Below are positions 3,263-15,253 of a DNA stretch of 15,253 bases, one piece after another. The DNA is from a virus. Its lineage: Duplodnaviria; Heunggongvirae; Uroviricota; Caudoviricetes. Position 1 is the first letter of the stretch. Each line of letters begins with the position of its first letter. The stretch is from the IMG/VR virus record IMGVR_UViG_2778261687_000008; one strand, given 5' to 3'. The notes beneath the pieces were generated by a model. That model was not told the origin of the DNA. It worked only from the letters and a program-made list of their open reading frames with translations, and made no database searches. The position numbers were made by a program, and so were the translations under genes.

Positions 3263-4345
3263 ATGAAAAAATTAACAGTGGCAATTTCTGCTGTAGCTGC
3301 ATCAGTACTGATGGCGATGTCTGCTCAGGCAGCTGAAATTTATAATAAAGACAGTAACAAGCTGGATCTGTACGGGAAAGTTAATGCTAAGCACTACTTC
3401 TCCTCTAATGATGCAGATGATGGTGATACTACTTATGCCCGTCTTGGCTTCAAAGGTGAAACCCAAATCAACGATCAGCTGACTGGTTTCGGTCAGTGGG
3501 AATATGAATTCAAAGGCAACCGCGCTGAATCTCAAGGTTCCTCCAAAGACAAAACCCGTCTTGCATTTGCAGGCCTGAAATTCGGTGACTACGGCTCAAT
3601 CGATTACGGCCGTAACTACGGTGTAGCATACGACATCGGTGCGTGGACTGACGTTCTGCCAGAATTCGGTGGCGATACCTGGACCCAAACAGATGTGTTC
3701 ATGACTGGTCGTACCACTGGTGTTGCAACCTATCGTAACAACGACTTCTTTGGTCTGGTTGATGGTCTGAACTTTGCTGCTCAGTATCAGGGTAAAAATG
3801 ACCGCACTGACGTAACTGAAGCTAATGGTGATGGTTTCGGTTTCTCCACTACTTATGAGTATGAAGGATTCGGTGTAGGTGCAACCTATGCTAAATCTGA
3901 CCGCACTAATAATCAGGTTATCTACGGTAACAACAGCCTGAATGCATCTGGTCAAAATGCTGAAGTATGGGCAGCTGGTCTGAAATATGATGCGAACAAC
4001 ATCTATCTGGCTACCACCTATTCTGAAACCCAGAACATGACTGTTTTTGGTAATAACCATATTGCCAACAAAGCACAAAACTTCGAAGTAGTTGCACAAT
4101 ATCAGTTCGACTTCGGTCTGCGTCCGTCCGTTGCTTACCTGCAATCTAAAGGAAAAGACTTGGGTGCGTGGGGTGATCAGGACCTGGTTGAATATATTGA
4201 TGTAGGTGCAACCTATTACTTCAACAAAAATATGTCCACTTTTGTTGATTACAAAATCAACCTGATTGATAAGAGCGATTTCACGAAAGCATCTGGCGTT
4301 GCTACCGATGATATCGTTGCTGTAGGTATGGTTTACCAGTTCTAA
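3263..4345 (+). CDS. nmpC: General bacterial porin, OmpC/OmpF/PhoE family (NmpC/Lc-type prophage porin), apparently intact
   Basis: 360 aa. Signal peptide ending AQA|AEIYNK, aromatic/glycine-rich beta-barrel pattern, C-terminal ...VYQF. AAAGGG Shine-Dalgarno upstream. Opposite strand to the flanking Q and lysis genes. Confidence 0.9.
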
Positions 4346-5002: not shown

Positions 5003-5140
5003 TCATACTCCTGCTCCTGTCAGGGTTTTGGCGTAATTCTTCAGTATTCGGTAATCGGTCAAAACAGAACCGGGGAAACGATATAAGCGCAGATGCCCCC
5101 AGCGGTGGCGAAGAAGTTCTGCCATATAAAACTCAAACAT
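5003..5140 (-). CDS. ylcG: Small protein YlcG-like (45 aa)
   Basis: Manually translated ([45 protein letters not shown]). Below the ORF-track length cutoff. Its ATG overlaps the rusA stop (TGATG). Confidence 0.55.
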   Translation of the reverse strand: MFEFYMAELLRHRWGHLRLYRFPGSVLTDYRILKNYAKTLTGAGV

Positions 5141-5501
5141 CATTCATTCCCCATTTCGGTGATGGTCAGTTCCAGCCTCCCACCTTTGGTAACAGGCATC
5201 TTCACAACGCGGTAATCAACGACCTGAGCATCATCCAGCCAGAAACCTGCTTTGGTGAGTGCGTCAAAAGCGGCTTTTTGCAGATTATCCAGGTCACGGC
5301 GACGGCGATCCGGCATGTGGCACTCAATACGGATTTTCACTGGCATAGCCAGGCCGATATCCAGCATTGCGTTTTTAATGATTCGGGTGACGTTATCGCG
5401 GTATGCCTGCCCTTCTGCGCTGATGTGTGTGCGCCCGCGATTATGGCGGTAATAGCGGTTATTGCTCGGAGGCCAGGGAATGTGATGCTGTAGGTATTCA
5501 C
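5140..5501 (-). CDS. rusA: RusA Holliday-junction resolvase; N-terminus is frame-disrupted (possible pseudogene or non-canonical start)
   Basis: The core ...[24 protein letters not shown]...[28 protein letters not shown]... is in one frame back to a stop at 5521-5523, with no ATG/GTG/TTG before the Met at 5365-5367. A GTG-NTYSIT N-terminus-like segment (5481-5501) sits in a different frame. Confidence 0.6.
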
Positions 5502-6406: not shown

Positions 6407-6504
6407 GCTTCACCTCCGCAGAGGTCAAACGTTGGATGCAAAAAATCGCAGGTGCATTTCTGCATCTGTGAAGGGAGAAGAGAGTTTAGATTGTATGTGC
6501 GCAT
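6403..6504 (-). CDS. ylcH: Small cysteine-containing protein (33 aa), ylcH-like by position
   Basis: Manually translated [33 protein letters not shown]. Its stop overlaps the ybcN GTG start (GTGA). Identity rests on position and size only. Confidence 0.4.
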
Positions 6505-6832
6505 AAACGTCCCCGTTTAGCGCAAACCCACCGCCGGGTGTTCAGGCCGACAGTAACTATATTATTTCCTACTGTTTTTTAAAAATCAAAGGCCTTTATA
6601 CGTCACACGAGAGCAAATATTTCCGAAGAAGAAACCTTTCGCCTTGAAAGGATAAAGAGCTCATTTCATAAATTGAAATATTCAATAAGAATATTGCAAA
6701 AAATGAAATTATTTACTAGCGAGTCTATCTAACTGATAATTATGAAGATTGTAAGCGGTAGCAATCACCCGCATACACATTGAACAGGATTTAATACAAA
6801 ACGTCTTAAATTGTCCGTAAGGAATAGCACGA

Positions 6833-7849
6833 ATGACTCAAACTCCACTATTACTTGCAATCATATTTTTATTGGTTGTTCTTGTTCTATATATAGCTGC
6901 AATCAAACGCATCAAAAAAATACAATTAGAATTAAGTGATAGCAATCAAAAAAATGAAGAATACAAATCTCGCTTTGCAGATTATTTTAATGTGGAAGAG
7001 GAATGTAAGAAGCTTATTGAGAAAACAGAGCAAGAATGCTCCATTATAAAAGAAGAGTCCCAAAAAGTAAAAGAAAATGCCAATAATGAACTAACAAACA
7101 CCATTGAAAAAATGGATGGTATCAATAAACAAATCCAAGAACTAAGAAGAACTTATAAAGAGAAGAAAGAAATATATGATAAGCTAGTAAAGCAAATTTC
7201 TATTTATTCAGAAGATGTTGAACTAGCCGAACTAGGATTTTACGAACCTCATTTTAATTTTGAAGATTCAGAGCAATTTAAAAACAAAATAAAATCCATC
7301 AGGGATGAACAGAAATTAATGCTGCGGGATAAAACCCACTCTGGTGCAGTATATTGCACAACCCAATGGACTGTTGAAGGCTCTCGAGCAGAGGGTAAAA
7401 AAATGACAGACAGAAATATTAGGCTAACTACTAGAGCATTTAATAATGAATGTGATGCTGCAATTAGTAATTGCACGTGGAAAAATATCACTAAAATGGA
7501 AGAACGCATCACAAAGGCATTTGAGGACATAAATAAACTAAACGAGCAAAATCACATATATATAAATACTAAATACCTTAATAAAAAACTTGAGGAGTTG
7601 TGGCTTACCCATGAATATCGTGAGCAAAAACAGAAAGAAAAAGAAGAACAGGCAGAAATAAGGGCACAAATGAGAGAGGAGGAGCGTGCACAACGAGAAA
7701 TAGAAAAGGCCATGCAAGACGCAGAGGCAGAAGAGCGCCGTTATAAAAAAGCAATTGAAGCTGCAAGAAAGGAAATGGAAAAAGTTACTGGTGACATGAA
7801 GCAGCGCCTCGAAAATCGCATTGCCGAACTAGAACAGAGTTTGTCGTAG
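6833..7849 (+). CDS. Membrane-anchored coiled-coil protein (DUF4041-like N-terminal module; cargo gene A)
   Basis: 338 aa. Single N-terminal TM helix (LLLAIIFLLVVLVLYIAAI), then long E/K/Q-rich heptad-like coiled-coil segments and a highly charged C-terminus. AAGGA Shine-Dalgarno 10 nt upstream. AT-rich codon usage. Confidence 0.7.
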   Translation: MTQTPLLLAIIFLLVVLVLYIAAIKRIKKIQLELSDSNQKNEEYKSRFADYFNVEEECKKLIEKTEQECSIIKEESQKVKENANNELTNTIEKMDGINKQIQELRRTYKEKKEIYDKLVKQISIYSEDVELAELGFYEPHFNFEDSEQFKNKIKSIRDEQKLMLRDKTHSGAVYCTTQWTVEGSRAEGKKMTDRNIRLTTRAFNNECDAAISNCTWKNITKMEERITKAFEDINKLNEQNHIYINTKYLNKKLEELWLTHEYREQKQKEKEEQAEIRAQMREEERAQREIEKAMQDAEAEERRYKKAIEAARKEMEKVTGDMKQRLENRIAELEQSLS

Positions 7850-7879
7850 GCTGAATCAAAGCATCAAAGAGCATTATCC

Positions 7880-8335
7880 ATGGCACAACAAACCAAACAA
7901 GGTCATGTTTATATTATTTCGAACATAGGTTCTTTTGGGGAGAATGTTTATAAAATAGGCATGACACGACGTCTTGATCCACAAGACCGTGTAAATGAGC
8001 TTGGTGATGCATCTGTTCCTTTTATTTTTGATGTGCATGCCATGATTTATTCGGAGGACGCTCCATCATTAGAAAAAAAACTACATGATGTCTTCGATAA
8101 AAAGAGAGTCAATCTTGTAAATCGTAGAAAAGAGTTTTTCTATGTTACTCTGGATGAGATCAAAGAAGCTGTTAAAAAACACTCTGATTCAGAAATTGAA
8201 TTTATTGAGACAGCAGTCGCAAAAGACTTTAATGAGTCATTGGCTATTCGTAATCATGAAAATAAAAAAAGCGACAACAGCAACTCATCAATCATACTTG
8301 AGCGAAAAATCCCAGAGTTTGCAGATGTAATTTAA
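7880..8335 (+). CDS. T5orf172 / GIY-YIG-like nuclease-domain protein (cargo gene B); in frame with gene A across a single TAG
   Basis: 151 aa. Motifs GHVYIISN...VYKIGMTRR...R..EL...PF fit the GIY-YIG / T5orf172 (MUG113) pattern. Weak Shine-Dalgarno. Same reading frame as gene A with 10 sense codons between. Confidence 0.65.
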   Translation: MAQQTKQGHVYIISNIGSFGENVYKIGMTRRLDPQDRVNELGDASVPFIFDVHAMIYSEDAPSLEKKLHDVFDKKRVNLVNRRKEFFYVTLDEIKEAVKKHSDSEIEFIETAVAKDFNESLAIRNHENKKSDNSNSSIILERKIPEFADVI

Positions 8336-8604
8336 TTAATTTGTAGTTAAAACAAAACAGGCATCGTTGATACTTTTTGGTCAGCGATGCTTACATCCTC
8401 CTCTCGGAAAACGTCGATTACTTGCAACTTTATTTTTAATTTCCAGCAGCAAGTACTAATGCACAACCTCCATTACATACTGATTTGAACATCACGAATC
8501 CCGCCTCTAGCTTAAACTACAAAGTATTACCAGAATCAATCTTATTCATAACTAAACTCCACAGACCAATTGAACATATGAATCCATATTGATATGCTAC
8601 ATCA

Positions 8605-8633
8605 CAATGTGTTAACCATTAGATAACACATTG
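8605..8633. promoter_or_regulatory. Perfect 10-bp inverted repeat with 9-bp spacer upstream of the HD-domain gene (candidate operator)
   Basis: caatgtgtta-N9-taacacattg, 62-90 nt upstream of the ATG at 8695. Its right arm overlaps a TTGAAA -35-like hexamer (8631-8636). Confidence 0.3.
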
Positions 8634-8694
8634 AAACTATAAACATCATTACTATTTAAATTTCGTATTATAACTACAGCAAAAGGAAAGCCTC

Positions 8695-10242
8695 ATGACA
8701 AACAAAAACAAACTTGAGAACTTTGAAGACTTACTTCTGGGGAAGTTTTTAGATCCCATACATGGAGTGATTCGAATAACTAAGCTAGAAAAAAAGATAA
8801 TTGACCATCCTTTATTCCAACGACTACGAGATATCAGGCAGAACACGTTTCTATATAAAGTATTTCCTTCTGCAATGCACTCTCGCTTTGAACACTCTGT
8901 CGGTGTAATGCATTTATCGTATGAAATATTAAAAAATATTGATTTAAATGCACTAATTTACAATCGAAAAAATATGGGCATTGATCTATATTTAGATATA
9001 AAAAAAATGCCTTCAAGTCTTATACAGGAGTTACGTATTGCAGCATTGTTACACGATGTTGGGCATGGCCCACTTGCCCACCAATTCGATAGTTTTGCAA
9101 TATCCGTAAAAGATTTCAAAGAAAAATGCAAAACTGAAGGAAATAAACAATACGATAAGATTATATCTTTAAGTGATAATGACAAGTTAACCCACGAACA
9201 AGTATCATGTATTTTTATTAAAGAAATTATTGAAGAATTAAAAAATGAAGCCCAAGATAAATCAAATGACGACGATGTCTATAAAGAAAACATAGCGGCT
9301 ATTAATCCAGAAAGCATTATAAAAATTGTTGATAAAAGATATGATTTTAAAAATAACATTGAGGGAGTAAATGTATATCCTTTATTAGGTTCAATCATAT
9401 CATCTTCACCTATAGATGCGGACAGAATGGACTACCTACTTAGAGATAGCTACTTCTCCGGCGTTAAATATGGGATTTATGATTATGGACGATTATTAAT
9501 GTCATTTATTCCTGTGAAAGTTGAAAATAGTGTTTACCTGGCATATAAAGAAAGTGGTATGGATTCAATACTAGAATTTGCCAATGCAAGAAGTGGGCTT
9601 TATAGTCAAGTTTATTTTCATAAGACCAATCGTGCACTATCTGCGATGCTTAACAAAGCGTGTTCTAGAAAAAAAACTGATGATGTTGTCTATTTAAAAT
9701 CTAAAAACACTCTCATTGAGTCCATCAAACACTTTTATCGTGAAAACCCAGACAAAACGTTTTTAGAAAACACTCTTAAAAACACATTAGATAAAAATTC
9801 TCAAGCTATAATTCAAGATATTGTTGATAGAAATGTTTGGAAAAAAATATATGAAAAAAAACACACGTTTTCTAATGTTAACATTTCCGACAACAGATAC
9901 AAAGAATATAAACAAAATATATCTAAGAAAATCAACAAAATCATTGAGGATAATTTAAAAGGAGATGAATGGGTTCTTGATTTTCAGATTGAAGATAACT
10001 TTAAAGATATCGATACAAGTCAAGCTAAAATAATAAAAAAAGAAACAGGCGGCAAGTATACAATAAATGATTTATGTAAGTATAACGATGTACTTCAACC
10101 CTATCACTATGTTAAATTCTTTATTCGAGTTTTTGTTTCTAAGACAACTCAACTCCAAAACACCGAAGAAATTAATGTGTTAATAAAAAAAATAGATAAA
10201 TGTCTTAATGATGAGATTGATCATATTAAAAAAGACAAGTAG
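8695..10242 (+). CDS. HD-domain dNTP triphosphohydrolase, SAMHD1/dGTPase-like (cargo gene C)
   Basis: 515 aa. Motifs DPIHG (aa 20-24), RFEHSVGV (H67), LLHDVGHGPLAH (H120-D121) and DADRMDYLLRD (aa 241-251) align with the SAMHD1-type catalytic core as I recall it. AAGGAAAG Shine-Dalgarno. Lys-rich, divergent C-terminal third. Confidence 0.85.
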   Translation: MTNKNKLENFEDLLLGKFLDPIHGVIRITKLEKKIIDHPLFQRLRDIRQNTFLYKVFPSAMHSRFEHSVGVMHLSYEILKNIDLNALIYNRKNMGIDLYLDIKKMPSSLIQELRIAALLHDVGHGPLAHQFDSFAISVKDFKEKCKTEGNKQYDKIISLSDNDKLTHEQVSCIFIKEIIEELKNEAQDKSNDDDVYKENIAAINPESIIKIVDKRYDFKNNIEGVNVYPLLGSIISSSPIDADRMDYLLRDSYFSGVKYGIYDYGRLLMSFIPVKVENSVYLAYKESGMDSILEFANARSGLYSQVYFHKTNRALSAMLNKACSRKKTDDVVYLKSKNTLIESIKHFYRENPDKTFLENTLKNTLDKNSQAIIQDIVDRNVWKKIYEKKHTFSNVNISDNRYKEYKQNISKKINKIIEDNLKGDEWVLDFQIEDNFKDIDTSQAKIIKKETGGKYTINDLCKYNDVLQPYHYVKFFIRVFVSKTTQLQNTEEINVLIKKIDKCLNDEIDHIKKDK

Positions 10243-10283
10243 AGCCCCCCTGATGTTTTAAAAAACATCTTAACTATAAACAC

Positions 10284-10318
10284 AACGCCATTAGTTACTC
10301 TCAGTAACTAGTGGCGTT
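10284..10318 (+). terminator. Long hairpin downstream of the HD-domain gene (candidate terminator or processing/stability element)
   Basis: aacgccattagttact-ctc-agtaactagtggcgtt: 16-bp stem (one G-U wobble) with a 3-nt loop, 42 nt after the stop. No U-tract. Confidence 0.35.
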
Positions 10319-10612
10319 CATGTCTAATGATTGACCCGCAGTATTATCTGGTGCTTGTCAATCAGATTTATTCATTGTTTAATACTACCTCAGCATCCTG
10401 TTATACGCTACACAACCATTATTACTCATCCTTTGAGTTACATTTAATATCTAAAATATTTTTGTGTTAATCAATGTGTGGATATATTCCCTACTAATTC
10501 ACTAATTCATACAGCACCAAGCTAGAAACATTGTTATAGTTCCCCGCACAAAGCAAACCATTAAATTTGATTGGATGTTTTCGAGATAACCATCAAATCA
10601 AGTAATAACTAA

Positions 10613-10894: not shown

Positions 10895-11592
10895 ACAGTT
10901 GCTCCTTTCAGTCCGAACTTCGCTTTGATTTCTGCGATCTTCGCCAGAGCCTGTGCACGATTTAGAGGTCTACCGCCCATGACAGGAAGTTGTTTTACTG
11001 GTTCAGGTATCGCCTCACCACGGTTAATTCGCGCGGTCATACAAGTCAGTTCATCGGCAGCCTTGCGCCGTAATTCCGCATCAGTAAGCGCATTGGCCCG
11101 CATGTTCTGGTACAGGTTGGTAACCAGCCAGTAGTGCGCGTTTGATTTCCACGGATAAGACTCTGCATCCGGATACAGGCCACGCTTCCGACAATACTCA
11201 TAGACCATATCAACCAGCTCGCTGACGTTTGGCAGCCCGGCGTTAACGGATGCTTCTTCCCGGCACCAGGCAACAAACTGCCCGGGTGATGGCAGGAATG
11301 GTCGATTCTGCCGACGGGCTACGCGCATTCCTGCGTTAACCTGTTCCATTGTGGTGATCCCGTTTTCCCGGAAAGCCAGCACCCACTGGCGGCGGATTTC
11401 GTTCAGTTCGTTCTGGTCCCGGTTAGCCAGGCTCGCCGGGAAAGTTGCCAGTAACTGGCTGAACACACCATTGATGATCTGCGCTACCTGTTGTACCTGC
11501 GGCTTTTCGTCGTACTGTTCCGGCATGTTGTTGGCGATCCGGCGCATCTGCTCACGGTCAAAGTTAACCATCTGTGCGGCGATGTTTTTCAT
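10891..11592 (-). CDS. P: Replication protein P (DnaB helicase loader), lambda P-like
   Basis: 233 aa, near-identical to lambda P as recalled. Start overlaps the O-fragment stop (ATGA). Confidence 0.9.
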   Translation of the reverse strand: MKNIAAQMVNFDREQMRRIANNMPEQYDEKPQVQQVAQIINGVFSQLLATFPASLANRDQNELNEIRRQWVLAFRENGITTMEQVNAGMRVARRQNRPFLPSPGQFVAWCREEASVNAGLPNVSELVDMVYEYCRKRGLYPDAESYPWKSNAHYWLVTNLYQNMRANALTDAELRRKAADELTCMTARINRGEAIPEPVKQLPVMGGRPLNRAQALAKIAEIKAKFGLKGATV

Positions 11593-11786
11593 AGCTCCAC
11601 CCCGTAAATCCAGTCAGTGTTCGTCAGGTCGAGTTTTGGTTTGCCGGCTGTCACGCCAGCCTGTTGCTTGTTTCGGTTGATTTCGAGCTGGGTCCACTTG
11701 TCGCGGAGTTTGGCCGGACTCAGCACGTTACCGGACCAGAAGTTGTCCTGGCATGCCCAGCGGAACAGTACACACATGTCGCGGTG
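11589..11786 (-). pseudogene. O: C-terminal fragment of replication initiator O (N-terminal origin-binding part absent)
   Basis: The frame ends ...FWSGNVLSPAKLRDKWTQLEINRNKQQAGVTAGKPKLDLTNTDWIYGVEL, matching the lambda O C-terminus. Upstream residues of the ORF are antisense to exo and not O-like. The upper boundary is approximate. Confidence 0.7.
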
Positions 11787-11787
11787 G

Positions 11788-11829
11788 TTCCTGAAACAGA
11801 AAGCCACTGAGCAGAAGGTGGCAGCATGA
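11788..11829 (+). pseudogene. bet: 3' remnant of bet (Red-beta) fused at a deletion junction
   Basis: Last about 13 codons encode [13 protein letters not shown] with the stop overlapping the exo ATG (ATGA), matching the lambda Bet C-terminus as recalled. Nothing Bet-like lies further upstream. Confidence 0.5.
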
Positions 11830-12506
11830 CACCGGACATTATCCTGCAGCGTACCGGGATCGACGTGAGAGCTGTCGAACAGGGGGATGATGCATGGCAC
11901 AAATTACGGCTCGGCGTCATCACCGCTTCAGAAGTTCACAACGTGATAGCAAAGCCCCGCTCAGGAAAGAAGTGGCCTGACATGAAAATGTCCTACTTCC
12001 ACACCCTGCTGGCTGAGGTTTGCACCGGTGTGGCTCCGGAAGTTAATGCTAAGGCGCTGGCCTGGGGAAAACAGTACGAGAACGACGCCAGAACCCTGTT
12101 TGAATTCACTTCCGGCGTGAATGTTACTGAATCCCCGATCATCTATCGCGACGAAAGTATGCGCACCGCCTGCTCTCCAGATGGTTTATGCAGTGACGGC
12201 AACGGCCTTGAACTGAAATGCCCGTTTACCTCCCGGGATTTCATGAAATTCCGGCTCGGTGGTTTTGAGGCAATAAAATCGGCTTACATGGCCCAGGTGC
12301 AGTACAGCATGTGGGTGACGCGAAAAGATGCCTGGTACTTTGCCAACTATGACCCGCGCATGAAGCGTGAAGGCCTGCATTATGTCGTGATTGAGCGGGA
12401 TGAAAAGTACATAGCGAGTTTTGACGAGATGGTGCCGGAGTTCATCGAAAAAATGGACGAGGCACTGGCTGAAATTGGTTTTGTATTTGGGGAGCAATGG
12501 CGATGA
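11826..12506 (+). CDS. exo: Lambda-type exonuclease (Red-alpha / Exo)
   Basis: 226 aa, near-identical to lambda Exo as recalled. Appears full-length. Confidence 0.9.
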
Positions 12507-13884: not shown

Positions 13885-14121
13885 ATGTCTCGACTAATCA
13901 CTTTACAGGACTGGGCTAAAGAAGAATTTGGGGACTTAGCACCAAGTGAGCGAGTTCTGAAAAAATACGCGCAAGGGAAAATGATGGCCCCACCCGCTAT
14001 AAAAGTTGGTCGCTACTGGATGATTGACCGAAATTCCCGTTTTGTAGGAACGCTGGCAGAACCGCAACTCCCAATAAACGCAAACCCAAAACTCCAACGG
14101 ATAATCGCTGATGGCTGCTAG
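13885..14121 (+). CDS. xis: Putative excisionase / recombination directionality factor
   Basis: 78-aa ORF with strong AAGAGGAGG Shine-Dalgarno. Ends 11 nt inside the integrase ORF, the typical xis-int arrangement. Not lambda-Xis-like in sequence. Confidence 0.55.
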   Translation: MSRLITLQDWAKEEFGDLAPSERVLKKYAQGKMMAPPAIKVGRYWMIDRNSRFVGTLAEPQLPINANPKLQRIIADGC

Positions 14122-15253
14122 ACCCCGATCTCACAAAATCTCTATACCCAATTTATATTGCAAATTAGATAAGCGAACCGGAAAGGTATATTGGCAATAC
14201 AAACATCCACTATCCGGTCGTTTTCATAGCTTAGGAACTGATGAGAATGAAGCAAAACAAGTTGCTACTGAAGCAAATACCATTATTGCTGAACAACGTA
14301 CCAGACAAATATTAAGCGTCAATGAGCGTCTGGAAAGAATGAAAGGCAGGCGCTCAGACATTACGGTGACAGAATGGCTTGATAAATATATTTCTATCCA
14401 GGAGGACAGGCTGCAACATAATGAACTAAGACCCAACTCCTATCGGCAAAAAGGCAAACCCATTCGTCTTTTCCGTGAGCATTGTGGAATGCAACACCTC
14501 AAGGATATTACCGCACTTGATATTGCCGAAATAATTGATGCTGTAAAGGCTGAAGGTCATAACAGGATGGCGCAAGTCGTGAGAATGGTGTTGATCGACG
14601 TCTTCAAAGAAGCACAACACGCAGGACATGTTCCGCCAGGATTTAACCCAGCGCAGGCAACAAAACAACCGCGAAATCGAGTAAACCGCCAAAGATTGTC
14701 ACTGCCCGAATGGCAGGCAATATTTGAAAGCGTAAGCAGACGGCAGCCCTATTTAAAATGCGGCATGCTACTTGCTCTTGTTACTGGACAACGTTTAGGC
14801 GATATCTGCAATTTGAAATTCTCTGATATATGGGACGACATGTTGCACATTACTCAGGAAAAAACCGGTTCAAAACTTGCTATTCCGCTTAACCTGAAAT
14901 GCGATGCTCTGAATATTACCCTTCGTGAAGTTATATCTCAGTGCAGGGATGCTGTTGTTAGTAAATATCTGGTCCATTACCGTCACACTACCTCTCAAGC
15001 AAACAGAGGAGACCAGGTTTCTGCAAATACTCTGACAACGGCTTTTAAAAAGGCCAGGGAAAAATGTGGCATAAAATGGGAGCAAGGAACTGCGCCCACA
15101 TTTCATGAGCAGCGATCTCTGTCAGAACGGTTATATCGGGAACAGGGTCTGGATACGCAAAAGTTGTTAGGCCATAAATCCAGAAAAATGACCGACCGAT
15201 ACAATGATGATCGTGGTAAAGACTGGGTTATCGTAGATATCAAAACAGCATAG
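14111..15253 (+). CDS. int: Phage integrase, tyrosine recombinase family
   Basis: 380 aa. C-terminal catalytic pattern: Arg box, HEQRS (HxxR), LLGHKS and Tyr in DRYNDD. Stop TAG is at the last bases of the window, so att sites are expected outside it. Confidence 0.9.
   Translation: MAARPRSHKISIPNLYCKLDKRTGKVYWQYKHPLSGRFHSLGTDENEAKQVATEANTIIAEQRTRQILSVNERLERMKGRRSDITVTEWLDKYISIQEDRLQHNELRPNSYRQKGKPIRLFREHCGMQHLKDITALDIAEIIDAVKAEGHNRMAQVVRMVLIDVFKEAQHAGHVPPGFNPAQATKQPRNRVNRQRLSLPEWQAIFESVSRRQPYLKCGMLLALVTGQRLGDICNLKFSDIWDDMLHITQEKTGSKLAIPLNLKCDALNITLREVISQCRDAVVSKYLVHYRHTTSQANRGDQVSANTLTTAFKKAREKCGIKWEQGTAPTFHEQRSLSERLYREQGLDTQKLLGHKSRKMTDRYNDDRGKDWVIVDIKTA

Follow-up and report, generated by a model that had tools for sequence, protein, structure and literature searches.

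A SNIPE (PD-lambda-1) defence gene interrupted by an amber codon in a defective lambdoid prophage

PD-lambda-1, a single-polypeptide anti-phage nuclease that lambdoid prophages carry, was recovered by functional selection (Vassallo et al. 2022, PMC9519451). It was later renamed SNIPE, and the following account of its mechanism is that of Saxton and co-workers (Nature 2026, PMC13190303). There, SNIPE crosses the inner membrane once, with its N terminus in the periplasm and a cytoplasmic part comprising DUF4041 and a GIY-YIG domain, and the inner-membrane anchoring was established by PhoA-LacZalpha insertions and fractionation (PMC13190303). The N-terminal region, which is of low conservation, associates with the ManYZ mannose permease in the model of Fig. 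5g of that paper. DUF4041 and the helix downstream of it localise to the nucleoid, so that they promote DNA binding, and DUF4041 probably also binds the phage tape measure protein (PMC13190303). Phage DNA is cleaved by SNIPE during injection, not afterwards. According to the same paper, defence is abolished by E414A or by deletion of DUF4041 and is enhanced by mutation of E223. SNIPE without its transmembrane helix is toxic, as it binds and cuts the host chromosome, and the anchor prevents autoimmunity; an untethered nuclease without DUF4041 is diffuse in the cytoplasm and less toxic than the protein from which only the transmembrane helix was deleted (PMC13190303). The naming of the family is in transition: newer RefSeq records read 'SNIPE associated domain-containing protein' and PF13250 is called 'SNIPE' in some Pfam labels, while older records and the copy of Pfam used here read DUF4041.

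Here, we analyse a window of 15,253 nucleotides from a Caudoviricetes record, in which an earlier note, made from the sequence alone, had described a membrane-anchored, highly charged coiled-coil protein at 6833-7849, encoded upstream of the nuclease domain. We find that this reading frame encodes residues 1-338 of SNIPE (PD-lambda-1): the transmembrane anchor, the helical arm, DUF4041 and the greater part of the connecting helix. SNIPE is a known system whose mechanism has been characterised; the copy in the window is a nonsense-mutated allele of it and not a new scaffold protein. For the region 6833-8335 as a whole, we put the probability that it is a recently inactivated SNIPE allele at roughly 0.85. 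The features of the locus, all on the + strand, are the following.

6833..7849, + strand: truncated SNIPE (PD-lambda-1) open reading frame, residues 1-338 of 500 (PADLOC PDLC03976, phrog_1847, 99% identity to P0003)
6848..6904, + strand: N-terminal transmembrane helix, residues 6-24 (Kyte-Doolittle mean 3.37; AlphaFold2 helix)
6908..7231, + strand: N-terminal helical arm, charged and heptad-periodic, residues 26-133; corresponds to the variable 'adapter' region of SNIPE (shuffle test; AlphaFold2)
7232..7567, + strand: linker and DUF4041 globular core, residues 134-245, without heptad periodicity (Pfam PF13250 at residues 198-252, that is 7424-7588; AlphaFold2)
7568..7846, + strand: highly charged connecting helix after DUF4041, residues 246-338, cut by the stop (AlphaFold2; 60% E/K/Q/R, 3.6-residue periodicity)
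7847..7849, + strand: premature amber TAG in place of Gln339 (CAG), from comparison with 730V1 and other complete genomes
7850..7879, + strand: ten in-frame codons, AESKHQRALS, residues 340-349, between the two open reading frames (in-frame translation; homologue conservation)
7880..8335, + strand: orphaned C-terminal GIY-YIG/T5orf172 nuclease domain, residues 350-500, whose ATG is internal Met350 (Pfam, PADLOC)
8072-8074, + strand: codon of catalytic Glu414, inside the nuclease reading frame 7880..8335

One reading frame divided by a stop codon

The 338-aa reading frame runs from ATG to TAG and spans exactly 6833-7849 on the + strand. The reading frame at 7880-8335 is in register with it, and the TAG at 7847-7849 is the lone stop between the two. 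Straight translation of 6833-8338 gives one stop only, in the context ...LEQSLS(stop)AESKHQRALSMAQQTKQGHVYIISN..., and the downstream frame is open to its normal stop. Both parts match the same protein families in consecutive order. The PADLOC profile for PD-Lambda-1, PDLC03976 (491 positions), is matched by the 338-aa frame at positions 1-337 (E = 2.4e-105) and by the 151-aa frame at positions 350-485 (E = 4.2e-82), and phrog_1847 (474 positions) is matched by the first frame at 2-331 and by the second at 343-473. The first 338 residues are 99% identical to the 500-aa E. coli cluster representative P0003. On the second frame, Pfam detects MUG113 (4.8e-20) and T5orf172 (3.1e-18), both of the GIY-YIG superfamily; the scores for these two and for DUF4041 in the first frame are well above the Pfam gathering thresholds.

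The codons around the stop are those of a continuous protein. Within the stranded codons 340-349, A340, K343 and S349 are invariant and A347 is nearly invariant among 50 diverse homologues aligned, and the ATG at 7880 is internal Met350, which is nearly invariant in the same alignment. The SNIPE residues E223, N250, W257 and E414, named in PMC13190303, are found at identical numbers in the read-through translation of the window, with E223 within the DUF4041 core and N250 and W257 at the start of the connecting helix. The window therefore carries SNIPE itself or a near-identical allele. The nuclease frame is otherwise intact, with E414 and all invariant residues kept.

Comparison across genomes locates the lesion in a single base. 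We find the SNIPE gene in 131 of 5426 complete E. coli genomes, in every case on the chromosome. The closest complete genomes are those of strains 730V1 and B-1109, which are 99.9% identical to the window and have at this position one CDS of 1503 nt and 500 aa, annotated as 'DUF4041 domain-containing protein'. A 121-base alignment of the junction with 730V1 shows T in the window versus C at 7847 as the sole difference, TAG versus CAG. A 61-mer containing the TAG has no exact match in any of the 131 complete genomes; all of them match it at 98.4% with one mismatch each, and in the two nearest, 730V1 and B-1109, this mismatch lies at 7847, with C in both. An intact gene is also carried by a phage: the temperate, active phage PhiR26_1 has an uninterrupted 500-aa gene with 98.1% identity, annotated as 'PD-lambda-1'. 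As in the window, this gene is flanked by ren and by the ybcN side of the nin region. The best 120 homologues extend as well to Vibrio, Shewanella, Photobacterium, Klebsiella, Enterobacter, Yersinia and Pectobacterium. DUF4041 and T5orf172/MUG113 are joined in one chain of 323-545 aa in 117 of these 120; the three exceptions include a 223-aa entry (65% query coverage) and one entry on a 1.9-kb contig, and a conserved split at the junction is not evident among the 120. The separation of the upstream protein from the nuclease gene, as the earlier note had it, is thus given up in favour of one reading frame, which in the nearest genomes and in PhiR26_1 is a single 500-aa CDS.

Membrane anchor, helices and the DUF4041 core

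Transmembrane and coiled-coil character were assessed by hydropathy, by Fourier periodicity against shuffled sequences, and by AlphaFold2, which was run for the monomer of the uninterrupted 500-aa protein from an alignment of 50 sequences (mean pLDDT 79, pTM 0.42). The sole hydrophobic segment of the 338-aa protein is residues 6-24, LLLAIIFLLVVLVLYIAAI, where the Kyte-Doolittle 19-residue mean reaches 3.37; all other windows are at or below 1.6. Residues 6-24 are helical in the AlphaFold2 model. The N-terminal membrane anchor that characterises SNIPE/PD-lambda-1 is therefore present, and the single N-terminal transmembrane helix read from the sequence earlier stands.

The helical part of the protein is more differentiated than the roughly 300 residues of heptad-like E/K/Q/R-rich sequence proposed in the earlier note. 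For residues 26-130, the proposal holds: E, K, Q and R make up 45% of the sequence, the 3.5-residue hydrophobic periodicity is matched by 0 of 2000 shuffles, and a single heptad register extends over residues ~78 to 140 with 75-88% hydrophobic residues in the a/d positions. It does not hold for residues 131-260, which contain 30% E/K/Q/R and lack the periodicity (p = 0.18). For residues 261-338, the E/K/Q/R content rises to 60%, and a 3.6-residue periodicity is observed (p = 0.0025), with the 3.5-residue heptad signal not significant (p = 0.09). This is the signal of a charged amphipathic or single helix and not of a canonical heptad. The charged C-terminal block that had been pointed out, EQKQKEKEEQAEIRAQ...ARKEMEK, is found verbatim at residues 264-316 of the 338-aa frame. 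A transmembrane helix and helical arms are both present, so this side of the original description survives.

The model of the intact allele agrees with this division; being a model of the monomer, it shows long helices but does not bear on oligomerisation. The N-terminal part is predicted to form helices at 4-47, 49-52 and 54-133, followed by a compact alpha/beta domain at 146-245, in which most 10-residue blocks have mean pLDDT values of 86-96. Helices at 246-317 and 321-355 then connect to the alpha/beta nuclease domain at 357-482. The Pfam search for DUF4041 (PF13250), which had been suggested as a check, gives a match at residues 198-252 with E = 1.1e-19 and 70.5 bits versus a cut-off of 27. 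The view of the protein as a membrane-tethered scaffold or sensor rather than an enzyme is borne out in part: there is a membrane anchor and there are long charged helices, but the centre is a folded DUF4041 domain that promotes DNA binding (PMC13190303). The stop at codon 339 falls within the predicted helix 321-355, which leads straight into the first strand of the nuclease domain. A search of PDB sequences with the whole protein returned no matches. Foldseek against the PDB gave nothing at E <= 0.001, and the long-helix matches (F-BAR, spectrin) all had E > 0.2; an elongated model with a pTM of 0.42 is ill-suited to such a global search.

Consequences of the truncation and competing readings

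A C-to-T transition has converted the Gln339 codon CAG to TAG within the helix that leads to the nuclease domain. The main product would be a membrane-anchored fragment of transmembrane helix, arm, DUF4041 and connecting helix without the nuclease. The nuclease domain would be left as a downstream in-frame reading frame whose first codon is internal Met350 and whose ribosome-binding site is poor; it could be made only via re-initiation at this codon, and its product would be untethered and devoid of DUF4041. The predicted Shine-Dalgarno pairing is -2.1 kcal/mol at the ATG at 7880 versus -6.1 at 6833. For most other genes of the window that were checked, values lie between -4.3 and -10.8 kcal/mol, with int (-3.3) as the lone exception. 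We infer that efficient re-initiation does not take place at Met350, and that this copy no longer defends, having recently become a pseudogene in a prophage that is itself decaying. Since E414A alone abolishes defence (PMC13190303), a fragment without the whole nuclease domain should not defend. The lesion is recent, as the nuclease frame is otherwise intact in the window. With an amber stop at codon 339 and intact relatives of 500 aa, we class this copy as a disrupted allele and not as a functional member of the family: the GIY-YIG domain is not joined covalently to the transmembrane and DUF4041 parts in one polypeptide.

For the suggestion that the upstream part places a GIY-YIG nuclease at the membrane or gates it there, the outcome is divided. 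This has been shown for intact SNIPE (PMC13190303), but there the two parts are a covalent fusion, and in the window the fusion is severed by the TAG. A partnership between the two products is probably not operating here, with the tether cut and the Shine-Dalgarno sequence at 7880 weak.

The amber allele is found in several samples. The exact 338-aa product is encoded on contigs of NCBI assembly GCA_002226155.1 and of the runs SRR9914100 and DRR386160. The window is 100% identical to contig NLGV01000034.1 of GCA_002226155.1 (positions 300-15552), and the SRR9914100 contig equals the window over 11,980 bases with no difference. The DRR386160 contig has two differences from the window elsewhere and retains the TAG. 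A sequencing or assembly error, with CAG and an intact 500-aa gene in the true genome, would agree with the one-base difference from every complete genome that has the gene. However, the DRR386160 contig differs at two other sites yet has the TAG, which indicates that the stop is inherited and not a read error. Sequencing error as the source of the TAG was rejected on these independent contigs, and we consider it highly improbable. The DRR386160 contig also carries F368S (contig 3384-3839, window position 7935; IGSFGEN to IGSSGEN), where the 50 aligned homologues show no variation; this single observation fits relaxed constraint downstream of the stop. The allele has lasted long enough to occur in at least two slightly different haplotypes, which fits neutrality but also a truncated form that is tolerated or useful.

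That the two products form a functional two-piece SNIPE, in which a 338-aa membrane sensor or scaffold re-associates non-covalently with a separately translated 151-aa nuclease and defence is kept, is very unlikely; this is the partnership suggested in the earlier note. The nuclease frame with E414 and its conserved motifs is present, its ATG lies 31 nt past the TAG, which makes termination-reinitiation conceivable, and the recurrence of the allele among samples would agree with a retained function. However, this ATG did not evolve as a start but encodes a conserved internal methionine, and the Shine-Dalgarno pairing ahead of it is weak. The cut lies inside a helix that is continuous in the AlphaFold2 model and leaves no obvious docking interface, the best 120 homologues give no sign of a conserved split, and the invariant F368 is already mutated in one TAG-bearing contig. 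A nuclease without its anchor cuts host DNA in the experiments reported in PMC13190303; set free, it would be a burden on the cell rather than a partner. A further version of this idea, to which we give a slim chance, holds that the amber allele is not simply dead, being either a nuclease-free transmembrane/DUF4041 variant that might partly block or modulate genome injection or act as a dominant-negative decoy, or a naturally occurring split SNIPE with a re-initiated 151-aa nuclease. The proposed contact regions for ManYZ, DNA and the tape measure protein are all retained in the membrane-anchored fragment.

Read-through of the UAG, by an amber suppressor or by near-cognate decoding, would leave the gene effectively intact and yield some full-length SNIPE. 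Read-through of UAG and supE-type suppression insert glutamine. As the mutated codon was CAG and the downstream frame is open to its normal stop, such an insertion would regenerate the exact wild-type protein. Amber suppressors are rare in natural isolates, however, basal read-through of UAG is typically ~1% or less, and UAG followed by G, as is the case here, is a fairly efficient terminator. F368S downstream of the stop in one contig likewise argues against maintained selection. We regard a gene kept effectively intact by read-through as very unlikely; some residual function through re-initiation at Met350 or low-level read-through is conceivable. The last reading to be weighed is that of an independent membrane scaffold or a structural phage protein, such as a piece of a tape measure or tail fibre, with no relation to the nuclease. 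Weak SMC-like and LmuB profile matches arise from the long charged helices, but these are far below the cut-offs (21 bits versus 300 for an NCBIfam SMC-related profile; E = 0.0046), and the matches to PD-Lambda-1, DUF4041 and phrog_1847 are overwhelming. No structural family was matched: the sole PHROG is phrog_1847, which has no assigned function, and searches of PDB sequences and of PDB structures by Foldseek gave no tape measure or tail fibre homologue, so that this source of doubt named in the earlier note has gone. The structural or scaffold identity is refuted by the Pfam, PADLOC and PHROG profile matches, and its probability is negligible. The most likely reading of 6833-8335 remains a SNIPE allele that lost its function recently.

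Prophage setting and comparison with known systems

The prophage is integrated beside icd, with int at 14111-15253. It is defective and decaying. Relative to 730V1 and B-1109, a 1-bp deletion at ~5478 (within 5140-5501, - strand) splits rusA into reading frames of 75 and 54 aa. Relative to B-1109, a deletion of ~4.4 kb with its junction at ~11785-11790 joins a truncated O (11589-11900, - strand) to exo (11826-12506, + strand). Lost with it are the greater part of replication gene O, the immunity genes (ydaT-like, cro-like and cI-like), kil, gam and bet. The Q antiterminator and the lysis cassette flank an OmpC/NmpC-like porin gene (3263-4345, + strand; Pfam Porin_1, E = 3e-153), an arrangement also seen in DLP12-type prophages.

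The reading frame at 6833-7849 sits in a stretch of low GC (~0.27-0.34, roughly 6500-10500), with the lambdoid prophage backbone otherwise at 0.45-0.56. A consensus scan for promoters and terminators gave no excess of sites over shuffled sequence; support for a promoter-like site at 6712-6740 is weak, and the scan does not call a hairpin that is visible 3' of 8335. Directly downstream of SNIPE and in the same low-GC cargo island, a 515-aa HD-domain protein is encoded at 8695-10242 (+ strand; Pfam HD, E = 1.2e-6). It matches phrog_35128, which has no assigned function, with E = 3e-136, and shows sub-threshold similarity to dGTP triphosphohydrolases (TIGR01353, 21.8 bits versus a cut-off of 152; PADLOC dGTPase, E = 0.0018). 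It is possibly an uncharacterised defence gene. We considered this gene as an obligate partner of SNIPE and rejected it, as SNIPE occurs without an HD neighbour in PhiR26_1 and LP-26-E1-261, which makes the HD gene a separate piece of cargo.

Other broken SNIPE alleles are found in E. coli. Strain HH45 has a 1-bp frameshift near the N terminus, strain Evo1 an IS1 insertion and strain LP-26-E1-261 an IS5 insertion, each annotated as two CDSs. For two further genomes, 23AR0806 and OZ547223, a match length of 1800 bases and a split annotation like that of HH45 point to a putative frameshift. In HH45, Evo1 and LP-26-E1-261, the same gene at the same locus is split in two as in the window, whereas type and position of the lesion differ. 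This suggests recurrent, independent loss of SNIPE in E. coli by nonsense mutation, frameshift, IS1 and IS5. Repeated disruption could reflect a fitness cost of the nuclease, with its risk of autoimmunity, or mere neutral decay of cryptic prophages. For annotation, what looks like a scaffold plus a nuclease is one known defence gene broken by a point mutation, and it should be recorded as a pseudogene and not as a two-component system. The membrane tether deduced from the raw sequence arrives independently at the published mechanism of SNIPE, which is reassuring but not new.

Among membrane-associated defence systems, Zorya and Kiwa resemble SNIPE in acting at the membrane while the phage genome is being injected, a parallel discussed in PMC13190303. 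Unlike SNIPE, they are unrelated multi-protein systems, and the PADLOC scan detected no similarity to them in the window. Compared with the known fusions of PF13250 with PF10544 (T5orf172) or PF13455 (MUG113), the window has the same domains in the canonical order but distributed over two open reading frames. The closest relation is to SNIPE/PD-lambda-1 itself. The order of transmembrane helix, N-terminal arm, DUF4041, connecting helix and GIY-YIG domain is the same, and so is the cargo slot in a lambdoid prophage between ren and ybcN/ninB, as in PhiR26_1. The difference lies in Gln339, which is an amber codon in the window, so that the nuclease no longer shares a polypeptide with the membrane/DUF4041 part; loss of defence is the probable outcome.
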